From an uncultured Candidatus Saccharibacteria bacterium (GTDB taxonomy: Bacteria; Patescibacteriota; Minisyncoccia; Phycocordibacterales; UBA9973), in contig CAZQCV010000002.1 of assembly GCA_964591665.1 (NCBI GenBank), forward strand, positions 1 to 43,744: a DNA stretch of 43,744 bases. Direction: 5' to 3'. The notes below the pieces were generated by a model that saw only the letters and a program-made list of their open reading frames with translations, did not search any database and was not told the origin of the DNA. Each line of letters opens with the position of its first letter. The first letter of the stretch is position 1. Positions 4,203 through 19,372 of the stretch are shown here, one piece after another. The translations under genes were made by a program, and so were the position numbers.

Positions 4203-4760
4203 ATGAAAAGAAACGGAAAACTCTATGTAGTGATGTTGGAGTGCACTATTGCCTCTCTTGACTCAGTTAAAAAAGCTTTGGGTATCATAAGTTCAAATAT
4301 GGTAGTCGGAGGAGATAGAATTTATTTCATAATAAATGACGACAACACCGAACAGCCAGATGCAATTTTATATAGGGCAACTATGCTTGAATTATACACA
4401 AGAATAGTATCAGGGCCGAAGGAAAAAATTACTATACGAAATGAGAGACAATATTTCGGAGGGCTAGGAGAAGAACTTTTAAATGAAACAGAAGATAAAG
4501 TCGACCGATGGCTTTTCAGACCACTAAAACTAAAAGATCAAAAAGCCTTTATATTAATGGCAAAGATAATTTCTTGTATAGCTATTAATAAGCAATATAA
4601 AGAGATAGAATTTTATCTTACAGAGTTTAATGGTTCAGAAAAAGTTTTTGAATTATTCATGAATCATTTAGATCAATCACTCGATACACTCACCAAGCGA
4701 GGAGAGATTCCAAAGATTAGAATATCTCTCGTAAACAAATCATATGAACCGCCTTCATAA
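4203..4760 (+). CDS. Hypothetical protein (185 aa), orphan on the opposite strand
   Basis: The start is moved to the ATG at 4203 (MKRNGKLYVV...) because the TTG start in the track is the -35 hexamer of the promoter. The gene has its own promoter and terminator. I recognise no family motif. Confidence 0.6.
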   Translation: MKRNGKLYVVMLECTIASLDSVKKALGIISSNMVVGGDRIYFIINDDNTEQPDAILYRATMLELYTRIVSGPKEKITIRNERQYFGGLGEELLNETEDKVDRWLFRPLKLKDQKAFILMAKIISCIAINKQYKEIEFYLTEFNGSEKVFELFMNHLDQSLDTLTKRGEIPKIRISLVNKSYEPPS

Positions 4761-4776
4761 GAAGCGGTTCTTTTTT
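4746..4776 (+). terminator. Intrinsic terminator of the orphan gene
   Basis: The stem gaaccgc (4746-4752) with gcggttc (4764-4770) is followed by TTTTTT (4771-4776). The hairpin spans the stop codon. Confidence 0.65.
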
Positions 4777-4781
4777 ATTTC

Positions 4782-6050
4782 CTAAAACTTCAAAACTTCT
4801 TTGAACGAAGCATCTGTTTCAAACGGACCGATGAGTGCGAGATTCAAGTGCTTATTCACGAAAATCTTTTTTGCCATATCTTGGATTTGTTTTGCAGTCA
4901 CCTTGCGAATCTCTTTTTCAACTTCTTCTGGAGATTTTATTTTCTTCTTGAGAATTTCTTGCATGCCATAAAATGACGTCCATGCATCAGAAGACTCCAG
5001 TTCGAGTTTCATATTTCCTACGAGATATTCTTTCACTTTTGCGAGTTCTTCTTTTGAGACTGGTACTTCAACAAGTTTTTTACATTCAAGTAATATTTCT
5101 CGTATCACTTCCGGTACTCGGTCATTTGAAATACCTGCAGAGATTTCAAGACATCCATGATCGGTAGATGTGTCGTTATGTGAACGCACATAATATGCAA
5201 CACCGAGATCTTCACGGAGTTTTATAAAAAGTCGAGATGACATTCCGCCTGCAAGAATCGTCGAGAGTACGGTAAGTACTGGATTGTTTTTATTATATGC
5301 ATCAAAGGTTCTCACACCTAACACCAGGTGCGTTTGATCTGTTTTTTTGTACTGCACGAGCACTTCTGGCTTTGACTGCTTCTCAATCGTCTTTAACTTT
5401 GATGCTTTTGCGTGATTCTTGAGTGTACCAAATATCTTCGCAACTTCTTTTTCTACTTCTTTTGCACTTACCTTTCCTGCGACAATTACTGTTGTTGCCT
5501 TCGGAACATAGTGTGCATGTTTGTATTCAACAAAATCATCACGAGTGAAACTTTTTACGTTTTCTCGTGTACCTGCAATGTTCCAACCAGCAGGTTGATC
5601 TCCATAGAGAAGTGACGTAAAAAGATCCTGCACATGACGATGTGGCATATCTTCATACATATTTATTTCTTCTACAATCACACCTTTTTCTTTCTGCATT
5701 TCTGCTTCAGGAAATGTTGAGTTCAAATAAATATCAGAAATCACGTCAAAGAGTTGTTTAAAATGTTTTGCGTCACTTTTTGCATAGTAGCCAGTATATT
5801 CCTGTCCGGTAAATGCATTGTACTGACTACCGAGACCATCGAGCTCACTTGCGATCGTATGCGCTGTTGGACGCATTGTTGTACCTTTGAAACACATGTG
5901 TTCTAGAAAATGTGAGATACCATTGTTCTTTTTATTTTCATATTTTGAACCGGTCTCTACGAGCACAAGTACGGTAACAGTCGGATTATCCTTCATTGGA
6001 ACAGTAATGACTCGAAGTCCATTTTTGAGTTTTGATTTTGTGTATTTCAT
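4782..6050 (-). CDS. M16-family (pitrilysin-like) zinc peptidase
   Basis: The inverted zinc motif HxxEH is present as GISHFLEHMCFKGT, and the 422-aa length is typical for this family. Confidence 0.85.
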   Translation of the reverse strand: MKYTKSKLKNGLRVITVPMKDNPTVTVLVLVETGSKYENKKNNGISHFLEHMCFKGTTMRPTAHTIASELDGLGSQYNAFTGQEYTGYYAKSDAKHFKQLFDVISDIYLNSTFPEAEMQKEKGVIVEEINMYEDMPHRHVQDLFTSLLYGDQPAGWNIAGTRENVKSFTRDDFVEYKHAHYVPKATTVIVAGKVSAKEVEKEVAKIFGTLKNHAKASKLKTIEKQSKPEVLVQYKKTDQTHLVLGVRTFDAYNKNNPVLTVLSTILAGGMSSRLFIKLREDLGVAYYVRSHNDTSTDHGCLEISAGISNDRVPEVIREILLECKKLVEVPVSKEELAKVKEYLVGNMKLELESSDAWTSFYGMQEILKKKIKSPEEVEKEIRKVTAKQIQDMAKKIFVNKHLNLALIGPFETDASFKEVLKF

Positions 6051-6055
6051 GATGT

Positions 6056-6490
6056 TTATTTTGGTAGCTGATCAATAATTTTAGGTAGTGCATATTGCCA
6101 TGCGGTATGAAGCGGTGTTGGTATTGTATCCAGTGTAACCCATTTTATTTCTTCAAATTTATGCGGTTCACCATTTTGGACTTGTTTTGGATCAACCTCA
6201 ACAAGAAACACCAAAGACAACCAGTGTGTTTTCTTTCCTTCATGTTCACGAAAAATATCAAAGTAAGAGATAAATTTTGAAGAAAGTACATCAGCACAGT
6301 ATTCTTCTTTTATTTCTTTATGCAACGTTTGGTCGACAGTATCTCCAAAATCAACTCCGCCACCACCAAAGTCCCATGTGCCATGTTCATCACGACAGTT
6401 TATACTTCGTTTATTCATCAGATAGTTTCCTTTTCCATCGTGACACATGTATGAAACAGTAATTCCAATATAATCAATTCCTTTTTGCAT
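6056..6490 (-). CDS. NUDIX hydrolase (degenerate Nudix box)
   Basis: GGGGVDFGDTVDQTLHKEIKEEYCA matches Gx5(E/D)x7(R/K)ExxEE. The 144-aa length fits the family. Confidence 0.7.
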   Translation of the reverse strand: MQKGIDYIGITVSYMCHDGKGNYLMNKRSINCRDEHGTWDFGGGGVDFGDTVDQTLHKEIKEEYCADVLSSKFISYFDIFREHEGKKTHWLSLVFLVEVDPKQVQNGEPHKFEEIKWVTLDTIPTPLHTAWQYALPKIIDQLPK

Positions 6491-6493
6491 ATA

Positions 6494-7375
6494 TTAATTT
6501 TTATCTAAAGTATCAATAATTGTATTTGCAATACTATTTCCCAGAGATTTCATTTCCTCTCTTAAGAGCATTTTTTCTTTTGCTAATTTCTCAGATTCAA
6601 CTGAATCAGAATACCTAACCGGTTCAGTGTATTTATTATCATAATTCTTGGTAACCCCAACTGCTTCGGAACCAGCGTAAGAGAACCTTAGCCTCCCATT
6701 CTTATCCGGATTACCTTCGCTATTATCTTGAAATTGATATCCACCCTTGGCTTCAAATTCTCCATCTCTTTTTTTAAGAGTATGTGACGTCCCAATAGAG
6801 TATGATCTTATATCTCGAGAATCAAATGCTCTTTTTATTTCATCTAATGAAATTTGCCAAGCATGAAAGTCATCTATAATTGCCATTTTAAAATCAGGGA
6901 TCACTGATGTATATTCTTCTATTTCTTGGGCTCTTTCTTTCATAAGAGCTCTGCTTATTGTCGTTTTCTCTACTTCAGCAGTTTTTACATAATCTTCAAT
7001 AAGCATTTTATGATCATTTTCAGAGATGTGTTCTTTGATAGCACTTCTTAAATCTTCACTACTGTTAATTCTTCCCTCCATTCCTTCATAACGTTCAAGG
7101 TAGATTTGCATTCCATGCGGATTTTTCCCAACATTAAAGAACACAAATTTTGGAATTTTAGTATTTTTATTTTCTTGCAGCTTTTTAAAAATTGGAGCTA
7201 ACAAATAAGATAGCGGACGGGCTGCTGTTTCCGGAAGAAGAATCACATCAGGGAAATTATTCTCAAAGTCAGCATACATGTGTTTTATAACACTCTGCGC
7301 TCCTTCTGTAAGATATTTTCTATCCCAATCATTTAGAATTTTTTCTTCTTTTTTAGGAAACTCAAAATGTTCCAT
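6494..7375 (-). CDS. Hypothetical protein (293 aa), translationally coupled between glyQS and the NUDIX gene
   Basis: The ORF is clean, with gaps of only 1 nt and 3 nt to its neighbours. There are only weak PRTase-like strings (VILLPETAARPLSYL, KMAIIDDFHAWQ), so I make no family call. Confidence 0.65.
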   Translation of the reverse strand: MEHFEFPKKEEKILNDWDRKYLTEGAQSVIKHMYADFENNFPDVILLPETAARPLSYLLAPIFKKLQENKNTKIPKFVFFNVGKNPHGMQIYLERYEGMEGRINSSEDLRSAIKEHISENDHKMLIEDYVKTAEVEKTTISRALMKERAQEIEEYTSVIPDFKMAIIDDFHAWQISLDEIKRAFDSRDIRSYSIGTSHTLKKRDGEFEAKGGYQFQDNSEGNPDKNGRLRFSYAGSEAVGVTKNYDNKYTEPVRYSDSVESEKLAKEKMLLREEMKSLGNSIANTIIDTLDKN

Positions 7376-7376
7376 G

Positions 7377-8774
7377 TTATTCTAAAACTTGTCTGATATA
7401 CTCAATCAAACCGCTTATTTGTACTCGCTCTTGTTCTCCTGTATCTCGATTACGAATAGTTACAGTATCTTTAAGATTAATAAGATTAACAGTATCCCCA
7501 AGTGTATCAAAGTCTATGACGATACAATACGGTGTACCGATTTCGTCCTGTCGTCGGTAGCGTTTACCGATATTGCCATTATCATCATAGATAACATTAC
7601 CGAATTCTTTTTTAAGCATCATAAACACTTCACGGGCTTTTGTCTGAAGTTCTGGTTTGTTTTTGAGTAGTGGCGAAACCGCTGCAATATATGGCGCAAC
7701 TTTTGGAGACAATTTGAGATACGTGCGTGTTTCTCCGCCAAGTGTATCTTCACGATATGCAGATGAAAGCACTGCGAGTAATGATCGTCCAACACCAAAC
7801 GACGGTTCAATCACATGTGGTACAAATCGTGTTTTTGTTTCTTCGTCAAAGTACGAAAGATCAACTTTTGATGCTTCTGCATGTTTCGTAAGATCATAGT
7901 CAGTTCGATATGCGAGTCCATAGAGCTCTTTGCGACCAAACGGAAAATCAAATTCGAAATCTATAGTACGCTTCGAATAGTGCGCACGATCTTCGTCGGA
8001 AACTTCGAGTTCATGAACACCTTCTTGAGTAAGACCAATATCTTTCGTAAATTCCCAAACCTGTTTTCTGAATTCTTCAAATGCGCGTTCCCAGTCCTCA
8101 GATTTTACAAAGTATTCGATTTCCATTTGTTCGAGTTCACGTACACGGAAAATAAAATCACGTGGAGCAATTTCGTTTCGGAATGCTTTACCAATCTGCG
8201 CCATACCGAAGGGCAACTTTGGATGAAAGGAATCAAGCACGTTTTTAAAATTCACAAACATACCACCTGCAGTTTCTGGACGAAGATAAGAAATAGAACT
8301 ATCGTCTTCGATGGCACCAATGTGCGTCTTGAGCATCATGTTAAACTGACGGACTTCGCCAAGCGCATTCCCATCAGGACTCTTTAAACCTTTTTCTTTT
8401 ATTATCCGATCCATATCTGTAAGTTTCATACCTTTTGGATCAATGTCGTTTGCTTCGAGAAGATGATCTGCGCGATATCGCTTTTTTGTTTCAAGATCTT
8501 CGACAAGTGGATCAGAAAATCCCGCAACGTGTCCTGATGCTTTCCACACCTCTTGGTTCATAAGAATCGCCGCATCCATACCATACATATCTTCACGGTC
8601 GAGTACGAAACGCTTCCACCAAAGATTTTCAATATTCTTTTTGAGTGCTACACCGAGAGGCCCATAGTCCCAGGTCCCTGCAAGACCACCATAGATTTCA
8701 GAGCCTTGATAAATAAATCCGCGTTGTTTACAGAGAGAAACAAGCTTTTCCATAGTTAGTGTATTTTCGTGCAT
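7377..8774 (-). CDS. glyQS: Glycine--tRNA ligase (dimeric class II type)
   Basis: The sequence contains LCKQRGFIYQGSEIYGGLAGTWDYGPLG, FRNEIAPR and a C-terminal anticodon-binding region. The length is 465 aa. Confidence 0.93.
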   Translation of the reverse strand: MHENTLTMEKLVSLCKQRGFIYQGSEIYGGLAGTWDYGPLGVALKKNIENLWWKRFVLDREDMYGMDAAILMNQEVWKASGHVAGFSDPLVEDLETKKRYRADHLLEANDIDPKGMKLTDMDRIIKEKGLKSPDGNALGEVRQFNMMLKTHIGAIEDDSSISYLRPETAGGMFVNFKNVLDSFHPKLPFGMAQIGKAFRNEIAPRDFIFRVRELEQMEIEYFVKSEDWERAFEEFRKQVWEFTKDIGLTQEGVHELEVSDEDRAHYSKRTIDFEFDFPFGRKELYGLAYRTDYDLTKHAEASKVDLSYFDEETKTRFVPHVIEPSFGVGRSLLAVLSSAYREDTLGGETRTYLKLSPKVAPYIAAVSPLLKNKPELQTKAREVFMMLKKEFGNVIYDDNGNIGKRYRRQDEIGTPYCIVIDFDTLGDTVNLINLKDTVTIRNRDTGEQERVQISGLIEYIRQVLE

Positions 8775-8780
8775 ATGGTA

Positions 8781-10709
8781 CTACTGTACCACTTTTTCGT
8801 TTGTTGGGCTATAGTTTTGATCGTTGTAGAGTTTTGTGGTGAGCTGATTCCATTTTGCTTCGAGTTTTGCCGTTGTTGCAGAATCAGTACCTTTTGCTCT
8901 GATTTCTTGTACAAGCACAGGGCTCGTACCAATATCTGAAACAGAAGGAAGGAGTTCTACTTGGAAATACAAAGTCTTCGGAGTCACACCATATCCTGCA
9001 CCACGAGCCACATCACCTGCTTTCCAGACTATCTCACCAGTCCGACTGTCTTGAGTCACATCTGAGTTTGCAGGAGAAAATGTTCCAAGATATTTTACAT
9101 TGATAGGCAATGCTGCACGAACTTCTGTCCCAGAGACTAGATTTGCGGTATTTGTAAGTGTCCACTTAATTGTATACGTAGTTTTTTGATTTGCACGAGG
9201 TGGCAACGGACCAGTATTAGTGAAAGGACCGTTGAAATACGAAGCAGCACCTGTAATCTGGAAATCAGTTGAGAAACGAATTTTTTTGGTATCAGAACTT
9301 GCTGTTTGCTGGAGACCACCACCATCGATAGGAACTTTTGCTGTAATACTTACATCAAGTCCAACTTCAGGTGCACTATTTACTACCGTTCCCTGACTAT
9401 AGAGACCCTTGGTAGCAAAACTAAAACCAAAGGTTCCTGTTTTGCTCGGATCCACCGCTGCGAGTTCTCTATTAGTATTTTTATTCCAGGTTATAGTATT
9501 TTCAGAAGAATTATAATACCCTCCAAAGGCTTGTACTGTTCCTTGATCAATCAACTGGCCCCCGAGTTTGAGTACAATCTCCATATCAGACACTGAGGTT
9601 GAAAGATTATTTGTCCACACAACTTGACCTTGCACGGTTGATTTTGCTTGAGTAACTATTTCTTTTGCAGCACTACCATTAACCAGTAGTCGAGCATCAA
9701 CAGCTGGTCGATCTATTTGCGCAGTGACAAGTTTTGACGCATAGACTGCACCTATGGTTTGAGGGTTATCTTTCGCAGGTTCACCAACATACGCACGAAT
9801 AGTTCTATCTTCACCATCTTCGGCGTTCATAATTCCAGATATTTCTATAGTCTTTGGCTTTCCTGGCTCAATATTCCCTAACGACCATGTATTTTGGAAC
9901 AAGGTAGGTTTCGGATTTGCATCTTTGAATTCAAATCCAACTGGATAATCAACTTTAAGAATCATATTAGGAACCGTTTTCGTAGTATTCGCGGCAACGG
10001 TAATACGAGACTTGTAGGCTTGACCAGAGGCGGTTGTGGTAGGCGCTTCGAGTGTAAGCACAAGTGGCGCAGAACTAATCTTTACAGGGAAAATACGATC
10101 CTTGCGAAACGACACAGTCGAACCAGATACACGGTACTCAAGTGTTAATTTAATTTGCTTCATGCTACCTTCTTCACCGACAAGCATCAATGATAATTTT
10201 TGACGAGCAACTTTTCCAGGGGCTACCGTACCAACAGAGAGACGAGATTTTACAAGATCACTTGGTGCACCAATATCTGCACCTGTTTTAGGATATTCGA
10301 TAATGAGGTCTGCGAGTTCAAGTGGAACAGCGTTTTGGTTTGCTATCTCGACTTCAAGAGGTAGTTCTTCGCCACCTGGTGTAAATGAGTTACCGCGGAC
10401 ATTGATACTTATGTTGTCACTAGAAACCTGATTATTACCCTTGAAGAACGTCCACCCAACAAAACCGAGCGCAATCAAAAAGAAACACACTGCAACAATA
10501 AAAAAGGTTTTGAAAAAATTCCTCGGTGGTGGTGCATCAGTCCCTGAAGTTTCTGGTGCTTGTGGTACACTTTTCCAAAGCTCTTCTACGGTATATCTAT
10601 TTGAATGCAAAACACCTTGTCGTGGACCAGTGACCTTTGCCGTACGACTATATAACTTTTTATTTAAAGAATCGAGACGATTTGGAACGTCATCTTGTGG
10701 TTCTATCAT
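8781..10709 (-). CDS. Bitopic membrane protein with a large beta-rich, repeated Ig-like ectodomain, unknown function
   Basis: The 642-aa ORF has a cytoplasmic N-terminus and a TM helix (FFKTFFIVAVCFFLIALGFVGWTFF). About 550 aa of repeated beta-strand-like segments follow (WSLGNIEPGKPKTIEISG, YTIKWTLTNTANLVSGTEV). Confidence 0.75.
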   Translation of the reverse strand: MIEPQDDVPNRLDSLNKKLYSRTAKVTGPRQGVLHSNRYTVEELWKSVPQAPETSGTDAPPPRNFFKTFFIVAVCFFLIALGFVGWTFFKGNNQVSSDNISINVRGNSFTPGGEELPLEVEIANQNAVPLELADLIIEYPKTGADIGAPSDLVKSRLSVGTVAPGKVARQKLSLMLVGEEGSMKQIKLTLEYRVSGSTVSFRKDRIFPVKISSAPLVLTLEAPTTTASGQAYKSRITVAANTTKTVPNMILKVDYPVGFEFKDANPKPTLFQNTWSLGNIEPGKPKTIEISGIMNAEDGEDRTIRAYVGEPAKDNPQTIGAVYASKLVTAQIDRPAVDARLLVNGSAAKEIVTQAKSTVQGQVVWTNNLSTSVSDMEIVLKLGGQLIDQGTVQAFGGYYNSSENTITWNKNTNRELAAVDPSKTGTFGFSFATKGLYSQGTVVNSAPEVGLDVSITAKVPIDGGGLQQTASSDTKKIRFSTDFQITGAASYFNGPFTNTGPLPPRANQKTTYTIKWTLTNTANLVSGTEVRAALPINVKYLGTFSPANSDVTQDSRTGEIVWKAGDVARGAGYGVTPKTLYFQVELLPSVSDIGTSPVLVQEIRAKGTDSATTAKLEAKWNQLTTKLYNDQNYSPTNEKVVQ

Positions 10710-10715
10710 GTTCTT

Positions 10716-10721
10716 AGTATA
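10716..10721 (-). promoter_or_regulatory. -10 hexamer TATACT placed 6 nt upstream of the ATG (leaderless-type)
   Basis: The minus strand reads cggTATACT aagaac ATG. The ATG is at 10707-10709. Confidence 0.4.
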
Positions 10722-10744
10722 CCGAAAAAATACAAAATAATAAA

Positions 10745-10772
10745 CAAAGTCATCTTGCTAGAGATGACTTTG
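10745..10772 (-). terminator. Hairpin plus T-rich tract at the recO stop codon (possible terminator)
   Basis: caaagtcatct and agatgactttg form an 11-bp stem around the recO stop. On the minus strand this is followed by tttattattttgtatttttt. Confidence 0.45.
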
Positions 10773-11333
10773 TCGGAACGCACGGTTTATATCTTGTATA
10801 TATTGAGCACTATGGAATTCTTTTGATGTTATATGCTCCATGATCGCTTCATGTGTCAGTGCAAAATTATCTCGTCGTGTGGTATACCCAAGATACGAGA
10901 GAAGACTGTGCATAAAATAAATTTCTGCTCGATGCAGATACGGTTGCGCTTCTGACGTCGAGACAAAACTACAAAATGTCTGTACAGTTCCCCATAGTTC
11001 TTCATCTGGTTCATCTTTCGGTGCCATGCGTTTCATTACAAGTACAAACCGAGACCAGAGACGTCGTCCAGATTGTGTACGTAGTAACTGTTGAAACCCA
11101 TTTTCTGGAATCGCAGATGTTACCTGCCACATGTCTTTTGCTTTTATAAGATCAAGCATAATGTGTGAGCCAATCTGAAGTGCATAGCGAAGTTTTGATT
11201 GATGCGCACGTACACCATGAGCAACTGCATAGAGCAGTCCGAGTTCTTTCGTCAATACAAAATACACCATATCGGTCTCTTTGGATGTGGTTGCGTCAAC
11301 AACAATCGCTTCCGTGTGATAGATATGGTGCAT
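10758..11333 (-). CDS. recO: RecO-like DNA repair protein
   Basis: The N-terminal OB-fold pattern is HTEAIVVDATTSKETDMVYFVLTKELGLLYAVAHGVRAHQSKLRYALQ. The 191-aa length fits compact RecO proteins. The start lies 5 nt after the ileS stop. Confidence 0.6.
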   Translation of the reverse strand: MHHIYHTEAIVVDATTSKETDMVYFVLTKELGLLYAVAHGVRAHQSKLRYALQIGSHIMLDLIKAKDMWQVTSAIPENGFQQLLRTQSGRRLWSRFVLVMKRMAPKDEPDEELWGTVQTFCSFVSTSEAQPYLHRAEIYFMHSLLSYLGYTTRRDNFALTHEAIMEHITSKEFHSAQYIQDINRAFRQSHL

Positions 11334-11338
11334 ACGTA

Positions 11339-14300
11339 TTACGCAATTTTACTAATAGCAATTTTGAAAGTCAGGTCATCGAATACTATTTCAGATGCAT
11401 CAACTGTTTCATAGATAATCTCCGTAGCGCCAACGGTTTTCATAATATCTGATTTAAAATCTTCAACGATAGATTTACCAGAGTCCGTAGTTTCTACGGT
11501 AAGCTGTATTCGATCATCTGGAGAAAAACCACTGGTTTTCCGCAAATCTTGGATCGCGCGTATAAGTTCACGCATAACACCTTCTCGTTTGAGTTCTGGA
11601 GTAATAGCTGTATCAAGTTTTACACTTATCGCAATGTCATTTTCATAGTAAGCGGTAAACTCCACTTCTTTTACATTGAGTTCATCTTTCAATATTTCTA
11701 CATATAGTACGTTTAGAGGAGCGGCTTTTACTTCGATTTTCCCAAGTGGTTGTCTAACTTTTATATTTGCTTTCTGCCGTGATTCTAGACCAAGAGTCAC
11801 TATGTTACGGATTTTTTGCATATCTTCAAGAACAGAAATATCTACATCTTTTGAATTTTCTGGCCAATCGGTCAAATGCACGCTTTCTGCTTCGCTAGAA
11901 ATTTTTAGTTTTTGCCAGATCTCTTCTGCAATAAATGGTGTAAATGGAGCAAGTACTCGCGCAGTAGTCTTGATCACATAGTATAATGTTTGTTTTGCTT
12001 CTTTATCACCATCTTTGATTCGATCACGTGAACGTCTAAGATACCATGTCGAAATATCATCAACAAAAAGATCAAGTGGTCGAAGTGCTTTGTCGAGTTC
12101 GTATGACTCCATACCATTCGTTACCTGTTCGATGACTTGATTGAGTCTCGCGACGATCCACTGGTCGAGTACATGCATAGATGGACTTACCGTATTTTCT
12201 TCAAGTGAAACATCTCTGTATAGCTCGTAAAACGAAAGTACATTCTCAAGTCTACCGAGAACTTTACTTGCAACCTGTGCAATATCTTTTTCTGAAAGAC
12301 GAAGTTCTTCTGCCTGTACCACCTGACTACCGAGTAGATAATATCTGAGCGCATCTGCTCCATGCTTGTTCACAACCTCCATAAGATCAGGATAATTCTT
12401 GAGACGTTTTGACATTTTCTGTCCATCTTCTGCAAGAATAAGTCCGTTCACAATAACACGTCTATAGGGAGACTGATCAAAGAGCGCAACACCAAGTACC
12501 ATGAGCGAATAAAACCATCCACGTGTCTGATCGAGCCCTTCGGCAATAAAATCAGCAGGATACCGTTGTCTAAAGAGTTTTCCTTCAGGAGTAGTATCGT
12601 CACCCATGTAATGTAGTGACGCAAATGGCATGGACCCTGACTCGAACCAACAGTCAAAGACTTCCGGCACACGAATCATTGGTAGACCTGAATCATCAAC
12701 AAGCACAACGGTATCGATGTATGGACGATGAAGATCAAGTTCGAAGGTACTATTGTGTGGCAATGGAACAAACGAAAGTTCACGCACAGTAGCGTTGCCC
12801 ACAAAGTCTTGTTGATAATTACCATTGTTTGCACCGTATCTAATTCGTATGGTTTCTTCCATATCAGCACCAACAGCAACAGACTGCATCATCCAGAGCG
12901 ATGCACCATGTCCGACGAATAGGATTTTTTCATTCGTGTATGTTTTTTCAACTTCATAAAGACAAGCACCAACACGAGCTTTTACTTCAGCAAGGGTCTC
13001 ACCGCCTTCTGGTCGATGAACAAATCTTTTCCGCTGATCGATAGCACCAGATGCATCATGGAACATCTCAAAATATTCACCCCATGTTCTACCTTCATAG
13101 ATACCAGCATTGATATCAATAAGTCGTTCATCATACACAATAGCGTCTTCAGTGAGACCTAACGTCTCTCGAACAATTTCGGCAGTTTGCTTTGTACGCA
13201 AAAAAGGAGAGGCAATAATTTTGGTTATACCTTTATCTTTGAGATTTACCGCAGACTCTTTAACTTGTTCAACTCCTTTTTCTGTAAGCGGTGTAACTGA
13301 ACCATGTTGATAACTGACGACACCAGCCACATTGCTTTCTGCCTCGCCGTGACGAATCATAAAATACGTATTGTTCGAAGTACGAGTATGTTTCTTTAGA
13401 GTATCCAGACTATTAATAACCACATATTCGCCATTTTGTTTTTTCCAGACAGGTATAGGTGCACCCCAGTATCGTGATCGAGAGATAGCCCAATCACGTG
13501 CACCTTCAAGCCATTTACCAAAACGACCTTCTTGTAAGTGATCAGGAATCCAAGTAACAGTTTTATTGGCTTCAATCAATTTGTCTTTGAGTGCAGTTAC
13601 TTTTACAAACCAAGAACTCGATGCATAATTAAGCAGCGGTGTATCACAACGCCAACAGTGTGGATATGAGTGGGTAATCTTCTGTTTCTCAAAAAGATGA
13701 TGATTATGTGCAAGGTATTTTATGACTTCAATATCACTTGCTTGGTGATTGTCTTTTGGCTTGGCAGGGAGACCAGCGAAGTGTGTTACTTCTGGTGCAA
13801 ACCTTCCATCGGTGCCTACGTGTTTTATAAGCGGAAGTCCGACTTGATCGGCAAGCTCCTTGTCTTCTGCACCAAACGCGGGAGCTTCGTGTGCGATACC
13901 AGTACCAGCATCTGTAGTGACAAAATCTGCATGATAAATCTTCCAAGCATTTTCTTTGTGGGCAATATCAACATGTTGATAGTAATCAAACGGTGGTGTA
14001 TATGATTTCCCAACAAAGGTACTTCCAAGTGCTTCGCGCAAAACGGTATATGTTTTACCCTGTAAGACGTTCGCAACGAGATCCTTTGCTATAACATATT
14101 GTGACTTTTCATCACCTTCAATTTGAACATACACATAAAGAGCATCTTTGTTGAGCGCGAGTGCAACGTTCCCTGGTAATGTCCATGGTGTTGTGGTCCA
14201 TGCAACCATATATGTACCTGGTTCGTCTTTAAGTTCAAATTTTACAAACACCGAAATATCAACAATATCTTTATACCCCTGACTTACTTCAAAGTTTGAA

Positions 14301-14860
14301 AGTGTGGTCTCACATCGAGGACAAAGGTGCATTATTTTGTATCCTTCATACAGTAATCCTTTTTTGTGAAGTTCTGCAAAAGACCACCAAATGGATTCGG
14401 TATAGGTTGCATCCATGGTTTTATAATCATGATCCATGTCCACAAAACGTCCCACACGAGGTACAATATCTTTCCACTCTGAAGCATATTCAAGTACGCT
14501 ACATTGTGCTTCGGTATTAAACCGATCGATACCATAGGTTTCAATATCTTTTTTGGTTTCAAGATTCAACTTCTTTTCAATAAGATTTTCAACAGGCAAT
14601 CCATGGCAATCCCAGCCCCACATACGCGGAACATACTTCCCTCGCATAGTCTGATACCTTGGTATTGCATCTTTTATGGTTCCAGCAAGAATATGTCCAT
14701 AATGAGGAAGTCCGGTACCAAACGGTGGACCATCATAAAACACATACGGGTCTCGACTCGTATCTAAGGTTTTTTCAAAAATAGCGTGCTCTTTCCAAAA
14801 CTGTTCTATATTTTGCTCTCTGAGAGCTCGTTCACTTATGTAATGAGATTGTTCTTGCAT
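11339..14860 (-). CDS. ileS: Isoleucine--tRNA ligase with an embedded histidine-phosphatase domain
   Basis: The sequence contains HYGH (HIGH), KMSKR (KMSKS), the CP1 editing motif TTTPWTLPGN, CPRC/CWRC, DWAISRSRYWGAPIPVW and FDCWFESGSMPF. The start is set to ATG 14858-14860 (MQEQSHYISERALREQNIEQFWKEH) because the 87 nt upstream in the track ORF are the T-box switch. Residues about 492-706 of this product are a PGAM-type phosphatase (see findings). Confidence 0.93.
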   Translation of the reverse strand: MQEQSHYISERALREQNIEQFWKEHAIFEKTLDTSRDPYVFYDGPPFGTGLPHYGHILAGTIKDAIPRYQTMRGKYVPRMWGWDCHGLPVENLIEKKLNLETKKDIETYGIDRFNTEAQCSVLEYASEWKDIVPRVGRFVDMDHDYKTMDATYTESIWWSFAELHKKGLLYEGYKIMHLCPRCETTLSNFEVSQGYKDIVDISVFVKFELKDEPGTYMVAWTTTPWTLPGNVALALNKDALYVYVQIEGDEKSQYVIAKDLVANVLQGKTYTVLREALGSTFVGKSYTPPFDYYQHVDIAHKENAWKIYHADFVTTDAGTGIAHEAPAFGAEDKELADQVGLPLIKHVGTDGRFAPEVTHFAGLPAKPKDNHQASDIEVIKYLAHNHHLFEKQKITHSYPHCWRCDTPLLNYASSSWFVKVTALKDKLIEANKTVTWIPDHLQEGRFGKWLEGARDWAISRSRYWGAPIPVWKKQNGEYVVINSLDTLKKHTRTSNNTYFMIRHGEAESNVAGVVSYQHGSVTPLTEKGVEQVKESAVNLKDKGITKIIASPFLRTKQTAEIVRETLGLTEDAIVYDERLIDINAGIYEGRTWGEYFEMFHDASGAIDQRKRFVHRPEGGETLAEVKARVGACLYEVEKTYTNEKILFVGHGASLWMMQSVAVGADMEETIRIRYGANNGNYQQDFVGNATVRELSFVPLPHNSTFELDLHRPYIDTVVLVDDSGLPMIRVPEVFDCWFESGSMPFASLHYMGDDTTPEGKLFRQRYPADFIAEGLDQTRGWFYSLMVLGVALFDQSPYRRVIVNGLILAEDGQKMSKRLKNYPDLMEVVNKHGADALRYYLLGSQVVQAEELRLSEKDIAQVASKVLGRLENVLSFYELYRDVSLEENTVSPSMHVLDQWIVARLNQVIEQVTNGMESYELDKALRPLDLFVDDISTWYLRRSRDRIKDGDKEAKQTLYYVIKTTARVLAPFTPFIAEEIWQKLKISSEAESVHLTDWPENSKDVDISVLEDMQKIRNIVTLGLESRQKANIKVRQPLGKIEVKAAPLNVLYVEILKDELNVKEVEFTAYYENDIAISVKLDTAITPELKREGVMRELIRAIQDLRKTSGFSPDDRIQLTVETTDSGKSIVEDFKSDIMKTVGATEIIYETVDASEIVFDDLTFKIAISKIA

Positions 14861-15117
14861 AATATCTTTTGTGTTTTGTGCACAGAAAAACTCGTCCACG
14901 CACAACAAGTTATTGTTATACAAGGACGAGTTTCCCCGCGGTACCACCTTGATTATCCATTACTGGATCAGCTTATAGAATGGGCTCTACTTAGAAATAA
15001 GATATATTTCATTTCTTCCCGAGGCTTCGAGGTGATTAGTCTCATCAACGCCTATATGACTAGCATAGCATTTTATGAGCCTTTTGCAATCATTTGCTTT
15101 ACTTATAGAATAAAGTA
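14861..15117 (-). promoter_or_regulatory. T-box riboswitch leader (tRNA-sensing transcription attenuator) of ileS
   Basis: The minus strand reads AAUCAAGGUGGUACCGCGGGG at 14934-14954, which matches the conserved T-box GGUGGUACCGCG. The antiterminator is CAAGG (14947-14951) paired with CCUUG (14921-14925), with a 7-nt UGGUACC bulge. A competing terminator lies immediately downstream. A GAUGAG K-turn-like string sits at 15041-15046. Confidence 0.85.
14886..14933 (-). terminator. T-box terminator hairpin
   Basis: In the RNA, AAACUCGUCC (14924-14933) pairs with GGACGAGUUU (14888-14897), followed by a U-run. The 5' arm overlaps the 3' strand of the antiterminator, so the two structures are mutually exclusive. 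Confidence 0.8.
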
Positions 15118-15358: not shown

Positions 15359-17083
15359 TTACATCTTTTCTGGAATTTGTATTGCCAAGAGGTTGAGTCC
15401 ATTCTGCATAGTCTGATGGAAAGCCTGCACAATAGCGAGACGATGTTCGGTTTCTGTTTTATCAGTAGCGACAATAACCTGCTCAGATGCATAGTATTGG
15501 TTGAATAATCCAGCAAGTTCAGAAAGATAGGTCACAATATGATGTGGCTCGTAATCCTGAAGGGATCGTACTACAACCTCTGGGAATCGATAGAGGTAAC
15601 GTTCGAGCGCTGATGGTGTGATCGTTTCGTGCACTGTTGGAGTAAATCCTAAACCTTTTGCTTTTGAAAGGATAGTCGCTGCACGAACAGCTGCATATTG
15701 TAGATACGGACCAGAGTCACCTTCGAATGAAATAGACTTTTCAAAATCATAGACGATATCACTTCCGAGCGATGAACGAAGAATAGAATATTTAAGTGCA
15801 GCGATACCAACAATTTGTGCGATATGTTCTTTATCATCTGCAGAAAATTCACGATCTTTTATTTTTTCACGGACAACATCACACGAGTCTTCTATGAGTG
15901 ACTCACCTGTTACGACGTTTCCTTTTCGTGAAGACATCTTGCCACTTGCGAGTCGCATCATACCGTGCGTGACGTGCTTCATCCGTGTTGCATATTCGGG
16001 TTGTATTTGTTCAATCGCTTTTGTAACGACCTTCATATACTCTTTTTGCTCTACTGCGGTCGTCGTAATAGAAATATCTGGATTCTCTTTTTCAAACTTC
16101 GTCATCGTGAGACCAATTTCTTTTGTCTCGTACATCGGAAGTCCAAGGGAGCTTATGAACACACGAGTGTGAAGTTTCGGATCATATTTTTCTGCATGAA
16201 AGACAATCGCTCCATCTGATTCTTCAAATACGTTCGGTACATTATCCTGAACAATCTTTGTACCAACCGGAGCCATCTGACTCTCAAAAAAGTAATGGTT
16301 AAAAGACGTTCCAAGTTTTTTATAAATTATTTCAAATGCTTCAAGTGTAATAGCACGACCCCAGTCATAGAGCGCATTGATAGCTTCATCACTTCTGTCA
16401 TAAATTTTTCTATTAAGCGCATCTACTTCATCTTTTGTATTTTTTTCATCTTCATATAAACCTGATGCATATGAATAGCATTCACCGATATATTGCGCCT
16501 GAGCGCTGACATCGAGAGATTCATTTGGTTTACCTCGCTGCAAAATTCCCCAGATCGCCTTTGCAACATGTAGCCCAACATCACCCTGATAGTTTGCACG
16601 GATAGTGTTTGCACCAGAGAATTCTACAAGTCGAGAAACAGCTTCACCGATCGAGTTGCTCATCAAGTGCCCAATATGAAACGGCTTGAACGGATTCGGC
16701 TGTGTGTATTCAACCATAACCTTTTTATCAGCAAGTACGGTATTTGCACCCCAGCGTTGTTCTTGTGCAAGAATAGTTTTGAGTGATTCAGTATAAAAAG
16801 CAGGTGCAAGTGTAATATTTATAAATCCTGGACCAGCGACAGAGATGTCTGCAATAAGTGAATTATCTTTCTGTTTTAGATTCTGAATAATTGATTCTGC
16901 TAAAACCTTCGGATTTTTGCCTAGTTGCTTTGCATATGAGAGTGCAACATTCGTTGCGTAATCACCATGAGACAGTTCCGTCGGATGTTCGAGAATAACC
17001 TTTGGCGCATTAACACCTAGCTCTTTCAGAATCTCTTCTATTTCTTTTTGTAGCGTCTCACGAATCATGGGTTTATAGTACAC
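15359..17083 (-). CDS. argS: Arginine--tRNA ligase
   Basis: The sequence contains PNPFKPFHIGHLMSN (HIGH), GKMSSRKGN (KMSKS-like) and a C-terminal DALR-type anticodon-binding region. The true start may be the MIRETL methionine at 17068. Confidence 0.93.
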   Translation of the reverse strand: MYYKPMIRETLQKEIEEILKELGVNAPKVILEHPTELSHGDYATNVALSYAKQLGKNPKVLAESIIQNLKQKDNSLIADISVAGPGFINITLAPAFYTESLKTILAQEQRWGANTVLADKKVMVEYTQPNPFKPFHIGHLMSNSIGEAVSRLVEFSGANTIRANYQGDVGLHVAKAIWGILQRGKPNESLDVSAQAQYIGECYSYASGLYEDEKNTKDEVDALNRKIYDRSDEAINALYDWGRAITLEAFEIIYKKLGTSFNHYFFESQMAPVGTKIVQDNVPNVFEESDGAIVFHAEKYDPKLHTRVFISSLGLPMYETKEIGLTMTKFEKENPDISITTTAVEQKEYMKVVTKAIEQIQPEYATRMKHVTHGMMRLASGKMSSRKGNVVTGESLIEDSCDVVREKIKDREFSADDKEHIAQIVGIAALKYSILRSSLGSDIVYDFEKSISFEGDSGPYLQYAAVRAATILSKAKGLGFTPTVHETITPSALERYLYRFPEVVVRSLQDYEPHHIVTYLSELAGLFNQYYASEQVIVATDKTETEHRLAIVQAFHQTMQNGLNLLAIQIPEKM

Positions 17084-17103: not shown

Positions 17104-17526
17104 TTAGAACTTTCCCGTACTTCCGAAACCACCAGCACCACGTTCGCTCTCCGAAAGTTCAGTAGCTTCTTCAAGTTCAGCAATCGCTACAGGAAGGATG
17201 ACAAGTTGACTTACCTTTGATCCTTTCTCTATGGTATATGGAGTATCTGAGAGATTTACGAGATGTGTATTGTATTCACCGCGGAATCCAGCATCGAAAA
17301 CACCACCCATAGTCTTTAGTCCTGCTTTTGATATGCTCGATTTATCCATGACAATTGCGGCATAACCTGTTGGGAACTCAAGCGCAAACCCGTGCATGAC
17401 AAAAAGGTGTTCACCTGGATTAATTACTTTTTCTTCAAGAGAGAAAAGATCCATGCCAACGTCACCTGGTAATGCATATTTTGGTAATTTTGCCTCTGGA
17501 TGTAGTTTTTTAATTTTGATGTGCAT
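17104..17526 (-). CDS. dut: dUTP diphosphatase
   Basis: The sequence reads MHIKIKKLHPEAKLPKYALPGDVGMDLFS...ERGAGGFGSTGKF, which are classic trimeric dUTPase motifs. The start is trimmed to ATG 17524-17526 because the track extension overlaps the divergent gene. Confidence 0.9.
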   Translation of the reverse strand: MHIKIKKLHPEAKLPKYALPGDVGMDLFSLEEKVINPGEHLFVMHGFALEFPTGYAAIVMDKSSISKAGLKTMGGVFDAGFRGEYNTHLVNLSDTPYTIEKGSKVSQLVILPVAIAELEEATELSESERGAGGFGSTGKF

Positions 17527-17530
17527 TGTA

Positions 17531-17560
17531 GTGACAGTATAGCGCAAATAGGTATATAAT
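17531..17560 (+). promoter_or_regulatory. Promoter GTGACA-18 nt-TATAAT, with the -10 6 nt upstream of the ATG (leaderless-type)
   Basis: TATAAT lies at 17555-17560, followed by aaaact and then the ATG at 17567. Confidence 0.5.
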
Positions 17561-17566
17561 AAAACT

Positions 17567-18085
17567 ATGCAAACATTACATCCTCTTTTGGTACATTTTC
17601 CAGTCGCCATGCTTAGTCTCTATGCAGTTGTAGAAATTGTATCGCGTATACCACTCTTCAAAAGATTTGATCTGACACTTACTAAAACAGTACTTATAAC
17701 CGTCGGCTTTATTGGCGGACTTATTGCGTCATCTTCTGGTGAAGCAATCGAGCATAACTTCAAAGGCATACGAGACCTTGTCGAAATGCACAGCACCTTT
17801 GCGACTGCGACAAATATCCTGGCTGGGATTATTTTTGTCATTTATGCAAAGATAGTATTCGGACCACTTTTTATAGAAAAATTAAAACCAGGTAAGTTAC
17901 AAACGATGAGTATGAAATCACTAGCCTTTTGGAATACCATACAAAGAAACTGGTTATTCATGGTAGTACTTGCACTTGCAGTTGCGACAACCATAACCAT
18001 CACGGGTGCACTTGGTGCAGTAATTGTCCACGGTCCAGAGGTAGATCCAGTCGTCAAAATGATTTACACAGCGCTGGTAAAATAA
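17567..18085 (+). CDS. DUF2231-like integral membrane protein
   Basis: The N-terminal signature is MQTLHPLLVHFPVAML, and there are about 4 TM helices. Confidence 0.7.
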   Translation: MQTLHPLLVHFPVAMLSLYAVVEIVSRIPLFKRFDLTLTKTVLITVGFIGGLIASSSGEAIEHNFKGIRDLVEMHSTFATATNILAGIIFVIYAKIVFGPLFIEKLKPGKLQTMSMKSLAFWNTIQRNWLFMVVLALAVATTITITGALGAVIVHGPEVDPVVKMIYTALVK

Positions 18086-18101
18086 AAATAATCTGTAAAA
18101 T

Positions 18102-18124
18102 AAAATGCCCGATCGGGCATTTTA
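18102..18124. terminator. Bidirectional terminator palindrome between the DUF2231 gene and tmk
   Basis: aaaatgcccgatcgggcatttt is a perfect palindrome that overlaps the tmk stop. Confidence 0.6.
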
Positions 18125-18808
18125 TTTTAGCTTGGTAACTTGTTCATATACTTTTTCATGAATTTCTTCACGAGATAAAATCTGTGCTTTTTTTGTACAA
18201 TCGATTTTTATGAAATACGGAAGTGTTTTAGAGAGCCATAGTGCTGACTCGCGAGAATTTTTTTGAAATGCAACGTCTACCTCGTGAACATCCTTTTTGC
18301 TTCCAGCGTAGTTTCTCTTTGCGGTTGCATTTCTCTCTTTCATCATCTTTTGGGAAACTTCAAAAGGGACAGAAAGATACAGCACCACATCTGGTCTAGG
18401 AATACCGAAAACTTTATGCTCCATCTCGTCTAACCACTTTAAGAATTCTTTGCGTTTTTTTGTATCTTTAATCTTACCTCCTTGATGAATTTGATTGGCA
18501 GAAACATATCTATTAGCAATTACCACGTAGCCTTTTTTAATCCAAGATTCTATTTGATCTTTTGATTCGAAACGATCAGCAGCATAGAGTACAGATGCAA
18601 TTTTCGGATGTACATTGATAAAATTATAGTACTGCTCAGTGAGACAATGGCCAATAAATTTCCCGAAGAAATTTTTATAGTACTCAGGAAAATCAACCAG
18701 TTTCACCGTCTTCCCTTCTTTTTTGAGTCGTGCTGCAAGAAGCGCAACCTGCGTTGCCTTTCCGCTACCATCGGTTCCATCTATTACGATAAATTTTCCT
18801 TTTTTCAT
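18122..18808 (-). CDS. tmk: Thymidylate (dTMP) kinase
   Basis: MKKGKFIVIDGTDGSGKATQVALLA contains the P-loop, and DRY-like and lid regions are present. The start is trimmed to ATG 18806-18808. Confidence 0.88.
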   Translation of the reverse strand: MKKGKFIVIDGTDGSGKATQVALLAARLKKEGKTVKLVDFPEYYKNFFGKFIGHCLTEQYYNFINVHPKIASVLYAADRFESKDQIESWIKKGYVVIANRYVSANQIHQGGKIKDTKKRKEFLKWLDEMEHKVFGIPRPDVVLYLSVPFEVSQKMMKERNATAKRNYAGSKKDVHEVDVAFQKNSRESALWLSKTLPYFIKIDCTKKAQILSREEIHEKVYEQVTKLK

Positions 18809-18815
18809 ACACTGA

Positions 18816-18824
18816 AGTATATCA
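18816..18824 (-). promoter_or_regulatory. Extended -10 TGATATACT placed 7 nt upstream of the tmk ATG (leaderless-type)
   Basis: The minus strand reads TGATATACT tcagtgt ATG. Confidence 0.45.
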
Positions 18825-18895
18825 AAAAGCATGCAGTGTATGTATTTGACATATATATAAAAGCTATGTAATGTATAAGTAATAAAAACATTGAC

Positions 18896-19372
18896 ATGGC
18901 AATAATAGGACAAATAAAAGGCTACGACAGTGAAGACTGTATGAAAAATATGTCTGTAGGATCTTCAGGATTCATGGATGCTGAAGAAATTTTAACTACA
19001 TATAAAGGAGTGTTTATTGCTCTTTATAACGAGATTTTACAAGAAGATGATTTAAAAGAGCACCATCTCGACTATGAAGATGTGGTAAAAATAACAAGAA
19101 TAGGGCCGGGTTTGACTGAAAATGATTTTGAGTTAGATTTTAGTCAATGCACCACACCATTTTGTATAGAAAGTTTTGCACATGGTAAAAATGAATTCTC
19201 CTGGGAAGAACATATTGTATTTAAAAATGGATTAACTATTGTTAAAGTAGAGGAAATTGAAGCAAACACAACTCCTTTATCTTTAGAAGAACAATTAAAA
19301 GAAGCCGAAAAGAATCAGGATTACGAACAAGCACAGATAATAAGAGATAGAATAGAAAAAGGAGAGAAATAA
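18896..19372 (+). CDS. Hypothetical protein with a C-terminal UVR-like motif
   Basis: The C-terminus LEEQLKEAEKNQDYEQAQIIRDRIEKGE resembles the UvrB/UvrC UVR helical hairpin. The N-terminal 120 aa are unrecognised and the start is ambiguous (18896 or 18941). Confidence 0.55.
   Translation: MAIIGQIKGYDSEDCMKNMSVGSSGFMDAEEILTTYKGVFIALYNEILQEDDLKEHHLDYEDVVKITRIGPGLTENDFELDFSQCTTPFCIESFAHGKNEFSWEEHIVFKNGLTIVKVEEIEANTTPLSLEEQLKEAEKNQDYEQAQIIRDRIEKGEK

Follow-up and report, generated by a model that had tools for sequence, protein, structure and literature searches.

Why should an isoleucyl-tRNA synthetase (IleRS) carry a complete, apparently active phosphatase in one of its surface loops? The question is raised by the ileS gene of an uncultured Candidatus Saccharibacteria bacterium (GTDB lineage Patescibacteriota; Minisyncoccia; Phycocordibacterales; UBA9973), which is located on a stretch of 43,744 nucleotides (GenBank assembly GCA_964591665.1, contig CAZQCV010000002.1, positions 1 to 43,744) that was analysed as a whole and is referred to here as the window. 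A first-pass annotation of the window had recognized what looked like an intact branch-1 histidine phosphatase inserted in frame into the encoded synthetase. Our analysis bears this out, as Pfam and NCBIfam profiles, catalytic residues, AlphaFold models and Foldseek comparisons agree. Judged from its sequence and predicted structure, the insert, which we call Php, has the profile score, RHG motif, phosphate pocket, acidic donor and fold of this enzyme group. Sequence comparisons further indicate that the insert corresponds to a phosphatase which in sister lineages has a gene of its own immediately upstream of ileS and is here fused to the synthetase, and that phosphatase and synthetase form a conserved two-enzyme module. 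With moderate confidence, we regard Php as an active phosphomonoesterase of the PhoE/CobC/PspA type and a conserved partner of IleRS.

The gene is contained in a continuous open reading frame on the minus strand (11339..14947) which, as had been reported, is interrupted by neither a stop codon nor a frameshift. We take the ATG at 14860 as the likely start of ileS, predicting a protein of 1173 amino acids, because the stretch upstream of it (29 codons counted from a GTG) overlaps the terminator of a leader RNA and because homologues align from about residue 5 after this ATG. The gene and its parts are as follows; conservation refers to the window protein plus its 120 best homologues, which are 50-58% identical overall.

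11339..14860, minus strand: ileS::php gene (1173 amino acids plus stop codon) encoding a type-2 IleRS with nested histidine phosphatase; assigned by open reading frame, TIGR00392, match to 8c8u and AlphaFold2
13385..14860, minus strand: IleRS N-terminal part, residues 1-492; first half of the Rossmann fold, connective peptide (CP) core, CP1 editing domain, CP2 and first half of CP3
12743..13384, minus strand: inserted segment, residues 493-706; PhoE/CobC-like branch-1 histidine phosphatase with conserved linkers, a gap in the alignment to 8c8u
11342..12742, minus strand: IleRS C-terminal part, residues 707-1173; remainder of CP3 (DLHRPYID), second half of the Rossmann fold (FDCWFESGSMPF), KMSKR, anticodon-binding domain and type-2 C-terminal domain (DUF5915)
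12836..13363, minus strand: match to Pfam His_Phos_1 (PF00300), residues 500-675; E=4.4e-35, 121.5 bits against a cut-off of 21.7, profile positions 2-171 of 194
13346..13354, minus strand: RHG motif with Arg503, His504 (predicted phospho-accepting nucleophile) and Gly505; Arg and His in 121/121, Gly in 119/121
13196..13198, minus strand: Arg555, second Arg of the phosphate pocket (S-P-x-x-R-T-x-x-T motif); 121/121
13115..13117, minus strand: Asp582, predicted general acid; Glu in 116/121, Asp in 5/121
12908..12910, minus strand: His651, second catalytic His; 121/121

By its sequence, the synthetase itself is a fully canonical housekeeping type-2 IleRS of the Parcubacteria group, with intact HIGH, KMSKR and editing motifs. 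All IleRS landmarks and phosphatase motifs quoted in the first-pass annotation were found and their coordinates verified (HYGH, 14693-14704; TTTPWTLPGN, 14168-14197; RHG, 13346-13354; KMSKR, 12404-12418); a GTGIAH motif is present as well. In the Pfam search tRNA-synt_1 (E=6e-130) is split in two around His_Phos_1, just as had been predicted, and is followed by Anticodon_1 and DUF5915. The NCBIfam model for ileS, TIGR00392, scores 857 bits against a cut-off of 621. The best match in the PDB is the IleRS2 structure 8c8u with 719 bits, compared with 303 bits for IleRS1 (1ffy). Among NCBIfam models the enzyme is nearer to the MupA/MupB-like type-2 enzymes than to anything else, but it is neither MupA nor MupB, whose models score 751 and 725 bits against a cut-off of 1900.

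Where the insert sits is evident from the alignment to P. megaterium IleRS2 (8c8u), which pairs residues 13-492 with chain residues 12-478 and resumes at residue 707 with chain residue 485. The 214 residues encoded by 12743-13384 stand where 8c8u has a loop of about six; the first estimate, some 210 extra residues at 12743-13387, was accordingly close. The flanking sequences are a helix reading SLDTLKK and the segment DLHRPYID. For the borders of the IleRS subdomains we relied on the published descriptions of the Candida and yeast enzymes, in which CP3 comprises residues 473-534 and 459-526, respectively, and the positions that align near residues 493-497 of the window protein lie within it. 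CP3 is a small module between the halves of the Rossmann fold which, depending on the IleRS, takes the form of a zinc knuckle, a three-helix or a beta-beta-alpha-alpha arrangement (Candida IleRS paper). The linker between CP2 and CP3, which lines the pocket for the tRNA 3' end (yeast IleRS paper), reads DWAISRSRYWG in the window, and the insert emerges about 30 residues further on. On these alignments we place the insertion site in the peripheral, naturally variable CP3 subdomain. The linkers of the insert are themselves conserved: Asn497, two residues before strand 1, is kept in 120 of the 121 proteins, and the last strand is followed by a conserved F-x-P-L-P-H-N. At the C-terminal junction of the window protein PHN (H702-N703) is followed by Ser, and homologues mostly have Glu, Asp or Ala at this position. 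The CxxC...CxC cysteines that insert-less relatives possess, and that about one half of the fused homologues retain, are missing from CP3 of the window protein.

Within the insert, identity among homologues is about 40-45% overall, and yet Arg503, His504, Asn510, Ser551, Arg555 and His651 are present in all 121 proteins and Glu621 and Arg629 in 120 of them. The catalytic residues align with those of PhoE and PspA, Asp582 being matched with the Glu of RLREI in PhoE and of IIEI in PspA. The closest PDB sequences are PspA (4ij5, E=1e-13), PhoE and TIGAR. An AlphaFold2 model of the full-length protein, built with 59 homologues, has a mean predicted local distance difference test score (pLDDT) of 90.1 and a predicted template-modelling score (pTM) of 0.83; within the insert pLDDT is 84-96 except at two short segments where it drops to 77-79, and values below 50 are confined to the mobile KMSKR loop. 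A Foldseek search with this model returned IleRS structures only, the IleRS2 entries at template-modelling (TM) scores of 0.78-0.82 (8c8u, 0.82). Modelled alone, the insert yielded a pLDDT of 90.7 and a pTM of 0.88, and its structural neighbours were PspA (4ij5/4ij6), TIGAR, PhoE, CobC, GpgP and a histidine phosphatase of the riboflavin pathway (TM 0.65-0.74); PspA 4ij5/4ij6 and PhoE 1h2e superpose at TM 0.70-0.74. Taken by its sequence, Php would be very probably an active phosphatase.

The identity of the insert at the level of a named enzyme was also considered. The top-scoring NCBIfam phosphatase models were PRK07238, representing the acid phosphatase half of RNase H/CobC fusions (84 bits), and CobC (79 bits). 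Assignment as a cofactor-dependent phosphoglycerate mutase (dPGM) was rejected on the scores of dPGM_arch (67.7 bits against 225, N-terminal half only), PRK01295 (37 against 316) and GpmB (67 against 261). Likewise rejected were the alpha-ribazole phosphatase CobC (TIGR03162; 78.9 bits, cut-off 162.9), the phosphohistidine phosphatase SixA (TIGR00249; 34.2 against 74.5 bits, covering only residues 529-599 in the numbering of the GTG-initiated reading frame) and the PspA equivalog (63 bits, cut-off 350). The profile scores characterize Php as a generic PhoE/CobC-like phosphomonoesterase rather than a glycolytic mutase. One of the Foldseek neighbours, 9mmh, which was also a sequence match, is a histidine-family phosphatase of riboflavin biosynthesis. 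In other bacteria ribF, encoding riboflavin kinase/FAD synthetase, is often located upstream of ileS; the likeness to 9mmh and this neighbourhood may be coincidence.

The nested architecture is by no means peculiar to the window. All 120 best homologues retrieved with the full-length protein combine PF00300 with the IleRS domains and share the junction, which had been suggested as a check in related genomes, and all matches with taxon-specific names belong to the Patescibacteria/Parcubacteria group (Wolfe-, Yonath-, Kaiser-, Taylor- and Lloydbacteria, Paceibacterota). Nesting is therefore not rare but the usual arrangement throughout much of the Parcubacteria group. The databases label such proteins 'isoleucyl-tRNA synthetase', 'class I tRNA ligase family protein' or 'hypothetical'. 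A 99%-identical protein of identical architecture comes from an independent assembly (cluster P0001, with 13 member sequences and 3 contigs); because of this protein and of the junction common to all 120 homologues we consider a chimeric assembly excluded for practical purposes. Across the insert, the GC content shows no anomaly and no compositional step. No second histidine phosphatase copy was found elsewhere in the window, and ARAGORN found nothing in it.

Some synthetases contain more than one phosphatase. Tandem double copies in CP3 occur in P0250 and P0237, whereas P0231 and P0267 have one copy in CP3 and another at the start of the anticodon-binding domain. At two loci (L049, 3639-4985; L056, 6001-7353) the CP3 copy is accompanied by one just before the second Rossmann half, and the partial protein P0122 has one copy near the border of CP core and CP2 and three in tandem in CP3. 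Altogether, two to four copies per IleRS are distributed over four different loops, and the catalytic Arg-His, Arg, Glu and His are retained in all complete copies; Arg and His of the RHG motif are present in all domain copies of the multi-copy variants and in the stand-alone proteins examined. P0071, a protein of 1325 amino acids named Patescibacteria, combines a GNAT acetyltransferase in CP1 (285-415) with the phosphatase in CP3 (664-827). Evidently, IleRS is a hot spot for the acquisition of enzyme domains in this radiation. A further locus, L059, has two tandem ileS::phosphatase genes (4531-7956 and 8092-10875), the second of which is divergent and lacks hidden Markov model (HMM) positions 200-387 of the N-terminal part, roughly the CP1 editing domain.

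The phosphatase is also found on its own. An exhaustive HMMER search with only the insert as query retrieved fused IleRSs, free-standing proteins (187-198 amino acids, 35-42% identity) and, in small number, proteins with two such domains in tandem. The free-standing family (about 189 amino acids) is well populated in the Patescibacteria group and includes a cluster (P0194) named Paceibacterota. Its members align with the insert end to end (MKLNNxYYxLRHGE versus SGNxYFxMRHGE), including the Asn before strand 1. When the context of five such relatives was looked up, all five had the order argS, php, zero to three further genes, an insert-less ileS (931-982 amino acids) and recO, followed by genes for a large uncharacterized protein and for a class II synthetase; php and ileS were separated by 1-2 nucleotides or overlapped by 7 nucleotides in three of the five. 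The gene order in the window corresponds to argS-php-ileS-recO of these relatives, except that the phosphatase is inside ileS:

15359..17083, minus strand: argS, upstream neighbour (Pfam, synteny); in relatives the free-standing php lies between argS and ileS
10758..11333, minus strand: recO, downstream neighbour and synteny anchor

To put numbers on the two arrangements, one genome per GTDB species was scanned with a profile seeded with a narrower alignment, which gave at least 509 phosphatase-encoding stretches. The best 80 of these at least 509 stretches were classified with local HMMs, and one locus (L029) was assigned to the nested class by hand. The phosphatase is nested in ileS at 41 of the 80 loci and located directly upstream of an insert-less ileS at 36; one contig is truncated, and two loci (L063 and L068) have no ileS within 5.9 kb downstream. 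Matches of php and ileS are at most 125 nucleotides apart at 26 of the 36 adjacent loci and are separated by 0.6-1.8 kb of intervening genes at the other ten. At none of the 80 loci were a nested and an adjacent copy found together. It is mainly this Rosetta-stone pattern of nested and adjacent forms that leads us to propose that phosphatase and IleRS work together, and a genuine functional partnership between them seems likely to us.

Several features of the neighbourhood may be recorded here. Other genes are wedged between php and ileS at L003 and L011 (10652-11819) and at L005 and L017 (6814-7806): in L003 these are a toxin-antitoxin pair of the RHH/ParE type and an HD_3 gene (YfbR-like nucleotidase) directly before ileS, and in L005 a gene of 330 codons without assigned family. 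Between ileS and recO of L007 (10716-12078) lie a bAvd-like gene and a reverse transcriptase gene (RVT_1), which look like a diversity-generating retroelement in a Patescibacteria contig. In the window, two minus-strand genes, encoding 642 (8781-10709) and 293 amino acids (6494-7375), have no Pfam match; the former occupies the slot between recO and the class II synthetase, where the gene of relatives encodes 554-610 amino acids with only faint CLIPPER/DUF7619 matches. Genes of nucleotide metabolism in the window (minus strand, 17104-18913 and 6056-6490) encode dUTPase (dut), thymidylate kinase (tmk) and a Nudix protein. Upstream of argS in L003, L005 and L006 lie a gene of the amino acid kinase family, probably that for UMP kinase (pyrH), and a Nudix gene; HD_3 genes likewise occur in relatives.

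How stable are the nested and adjacent states? The insert-less IleRSs encoded downstream of php are of two types, 48-49% and 33% identical to the window enzyme. Comparison of L001 and L007 with L003, L005 and L006 illustrates that two deeply divergent types (DCWFESGSMP versus SPWLDAGIVS) occupy one syntenic slot, and the linkage of php and ileS persists across both. In a quick neighbour-joining tree of IleRS from which the insert had been removed, the divergent type is adjacent throughout, whereas nested and adjacent forms interleave within the type of the window. They interleave in a neighbour-joining tree of the phosphatase, too, and certain nested inserts share more residues with stand-alone proteins (49-54% identity) than with other nested inserts (about 40%). 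These quick trees can be read in either of two ways: the arrangement may have switched several times, or the region may recombine between lineages. The basic charge of the stand-alone form was also tried as a hint to docking on RNA or IleRS (median isoelectric point 9.9 versus 5.6 for the fused form). This signal was rejected as an effect of lineage composition because the difference nearly vanishes at loci from matched species (9.67 stand-alone versus 8.78 fused; IleRS 8.5 versus 8.8).

What, then, might the phosphatase do for the synthetase? By the chemistry of the superfamily, His504 would attack a phosphomonoester to form a phospho-histidine intermediate while Arg503, Arg555, His651 and Asn510 would hold the phosphate; the acidic residue at position 582 (Asp or Glu) would protonate the leaving group and then activate water. 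Meanwhile IleRS would go on charging tRNA-Ile. We propose that the substrate of Php is a phosphorylated compound linked to the reaction cycle of IleRS, and that tethering to IleRS and not precise geometry is what would count. As to the substrate, a nucleotide-type phosphomonoester and a terminal 2'- or 3'-phosphate on tRNA-Ile, taken together, are a tentative choice; another small metabolite, with IleRS merely as host or co-expression partner, is a slightly better candidate though still short of an even chance, and phosphorylated IleRS or another phosphoprotein is improbable. We know of no step in the aminoacylation cycle at which a phosphate ester is hydrolysed.

A number of observations weigh against the proposed partnership. 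In the lineage of L063 and L068, two similarly named metagenome-assembled genomes, ileS has moved away from php; the genes that come after php instead, an uncharacterized one, priA and secY, give no hint of a function; L063 keeps argS upstream, and in the adjacent form php is altogether as tightly linked to argS as to ileS. Neighbours of ileS without known functional link exist in operons of other bacteria, ribF-ileS being an example. Php exhibits no feature beyond the generic PhoE/CobC pattern that would point to RNA, a nucleotide or a protein as substrate. Finally, copies occur at four sites, including one within the anticodon-binding domain, and in tandem arrays, which disfavours any mechanism that requires precise alignment with the aminoacylation site, and this variability would fit a tolerant IleRS host for a passenger enzyme equally well.

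Such a passenger would be an ordinary metabolic or salvage phosphomonoesterase without mechanistic tie to aminoacylation, kept in or beside ileS only because a streamlined genome thereby secures its co-expression and because large insertions are tolerated in the CP3 loop. We consider this a possible explanation, to be held tentatively. It is compatible with the generic PhoE/CobC-like sequence and structure of Php, with the four sites and variable copy number, with the natural variability of CP3 among IleRSs, and with the insertion of another enzyme domain, GNAT, in such synthetases (NF040702). The richness of the neighbourhood in nucleotide metabolism genes (dut and tmk; pyrH, Nudix and HD_3 in relatives) is as expected for a salvage enzyme, and the interleaving in both trees suggests an arrangement that is easily changed. 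It accounts less readily for the linkage to ileS, which holds at 77 of the 79 informative loci and with either of the two deeply divergent types of IleRS, and for the mutual exclusion of nested and adjacent forms. Moreover, every phosphatase-bearing protein of more than 700 amino acids among the top 150 library matches also matched IleRS, so that within this set nesting in larger proteins is confined to that synthetase. The overlap or spacing of 1-3 nucleotides between php and ileS suggests translational coupling and is typical of subunits made in a fixed ratio.

More specific, and rather unlikely in our judgement, is the idea, in essence the speculation offered in the first-pass annotation, that Php clears the way for charging. 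It would strip tRNA-Ile of a 2'- or 3'-terminal phosphate or pyrophosphate, or else dephosphorylate a nucleotide that arises as by-product or acts as inhibitor. In its narrowest form, in which the phosphatase would be a third catalytic site that enables charging by unblocking the tRNA-Ile terminus, the probability is lower still. A nucleic acid substrate is chemically plausible by precedent: the branch-1 enzymes Det1 and YOR283w can remove the terminal phosphate from DNA and ATP (PMC2737285), and the nearest NCBIfam model is the phosphatase half of a fusion with RNase H, another nucleic acid enzyme. The location would likewise be suitable in that CP3 directly follows the CP2-CP3 linker, which is part of the tRNA 3'-end pocket in yeast IleRS, and php is encoded between two tRNA synthetase genes. 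By contrast, no RNA-binding feature was detected in Php, the basic charge of its stand-alone form turned out to reflect lineage composition, any copy located in the anticodon-binding domain would be remote from the acceptor end, and there is no obvious reason why only tRNA-Ile should need clearing. If it were true, a step of tRNA-end 'unblocking' or repair would be built into an aminoacyl-tRNA synthetase, or act in trans to it, across the Parcubacteria group; the blocked end of tRNA-Ile could come from damage, a processing remnant or a toxin.

A catalytically dead structural or tRNA-binding module that enlarges CP3, for instance as a replacement for a lost zinc knuckle, might explain why the window CP3 has no cysteines of the CxxC...CxC type and why the model, with its pTM of 0.83, suggests rigid packing; this is very improbable, however, as the full catalytic constellation is invariant in the 121 fused proteins, the complete extra copies and the stand-alone proteins, which is unexpected for a pseudo-enzyme, and about half of the fused homologues keep the cysteines alongside the insert. 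That the insert is an artefact or a selfish element (chimeric assembly, intein or recent mobile insertion) has a negligible chance of being correct: the H-N-S junction resembles an intein splice junction only superficially, the residue after H-N being usually Glu, Asp or Ala, hundreds of separately assembled sequences have the same junction, Pfam matched neither a Hint/intein nor a transposase family, composition is unremarkable and the fold is that of a histidine phosphatase, all of which agrees with the view of the first-pass annotation that no mobile element is involved.

Expression of ileS in the window may be subject to a control of its own. The gene had been said to be under T-box control, and the region upstream of it contains the following elements:

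14919..15057, minus strand: T-box-like leader with very short Stem I; RF00230, 44.9 bits against a gathering score of 93, E=5.5e-9 in a search of 301 nucleotides
14937-14950, minus strand: T-box motif AAGGUGGUACCGCG, a perfect match, with UGGU bulge
14881..14940, minus strand: terminator hairpin with U-run, overlapping the T-box motif and located 20 nucleotides before the ATG

The T-box sequence, UGGU bulge and terminator speak for this assignment, whereas the Rfam score does not reach the gathering threshold, at which nothing was reported for the window; a leader that scores so far below would be missed by standard annotation. The predicted fold is stable (-64.8 kcal/mol, z=-5.2), with a distal Stem I of 6 nucleotides where the Rfam model has 75 positions. 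A candidate specifier, AAUCA (15033-15037), possibly comprises AUC (Ile) followed by A and is without covariation support. By its sequence, this leader is a plausible, sub-threshold T-box. It is lineage-specific and does not belong to the php-ileS module, because a search of four loci of the adjacent type yielded no T-box at E<=0.01.

Few enzymes have been studied as thoroughly as the aminoacyl-tRNA synthetases, and time and again new biology has emerged from their accessory domains for editing, tRNA binding or signalling. The IleRS described here is a synthetase with an acquired accessory catalytic domain that is widespread and uncharacterized. It had been asked whether the architecture might turn out to be common and already characterized: common it is in the Parcubacteria group, but we found no description of it. 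In the searchable literature, including a 2026 survey of IleRS domain evolution and AARS Online, we found no mention of a histidine phosphatase in or beside IleRS, in line with the earlier statement that no characterized IleRS has an embedded phosphatase, and as far as can be told the operon/fusion duality and the multi-copy forms are likewise undescribed. Throughout hundreds of species in a large radiation of uncultivated bacteria, IleRS is accompanied by an apparently active phosphomonoesterase, either within it or encoded directly upstream. A real functional coupling would suggest that tRNA charging involves an unrecognized substrate, repair step or regulatory step, or else that the physiology of the candidate phyla radiation is peculiar in this respect. 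The coexistence of fused and split forms offers a ready experimental handle, and the repeated switching between nested and adjacent states suggested by the trees, together with the multi-copy arrays, would make this a good case for studying domain insertion into essential enzymes.

Comparison with known systems helps to delimit what is peculiar to the window protein. With P. megaterium IleRS2 (8c8u/8c8v) and T. thermophilus IleRS (1ile) it has in common the HIGH, KMSKR and CP1 editing motifs and the type-2 C-terminal domain; it differs from 8c8u in having 214 residues in place of the short CP3 loop. PhoE (1h2e/1ebb), the Hydrogenobacter phosphoserine phosphatase PspA (4ij5) and CobC (6nru/6e4b) have the same fold (TM 0.66-0.74), the RHG...R...E...H set and a similar size. 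They are only 21-28% identical, however, and Php is distinguished by its family-specific Asn before strand 1 and by its nesting in, or coupling to, IleRS. The RNase H/CobC-type acid phosphatases (PRK07238; Rv2228c/SCO2299 type) represent another case in which a nucleic acid enzyme is joined to such a phosphatase, though by end-to-end fusion and with RNase H as partner, and the window protein scores 84 bits against the cut-off of 326 for this model. To our knowledge, the reason for that fusion is not understood either. IleRS with GNAT (NF040702, 'ileS_w_GNAT') likewise has a catalytic domain inside the synthetase, but domain and site are different; the window protein, which has no GNAT domain, reaches 295 bits against a cut-off of 1999. 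A precedent in principle is the CP1 editing domain of class Ia synthetases, a nested hydrolytic domain that acts on the product of the synthetic site. In contrast to Php, it is universal, has another fold and hydrolyses an aminoacyl ester instead of a phosphate ester.

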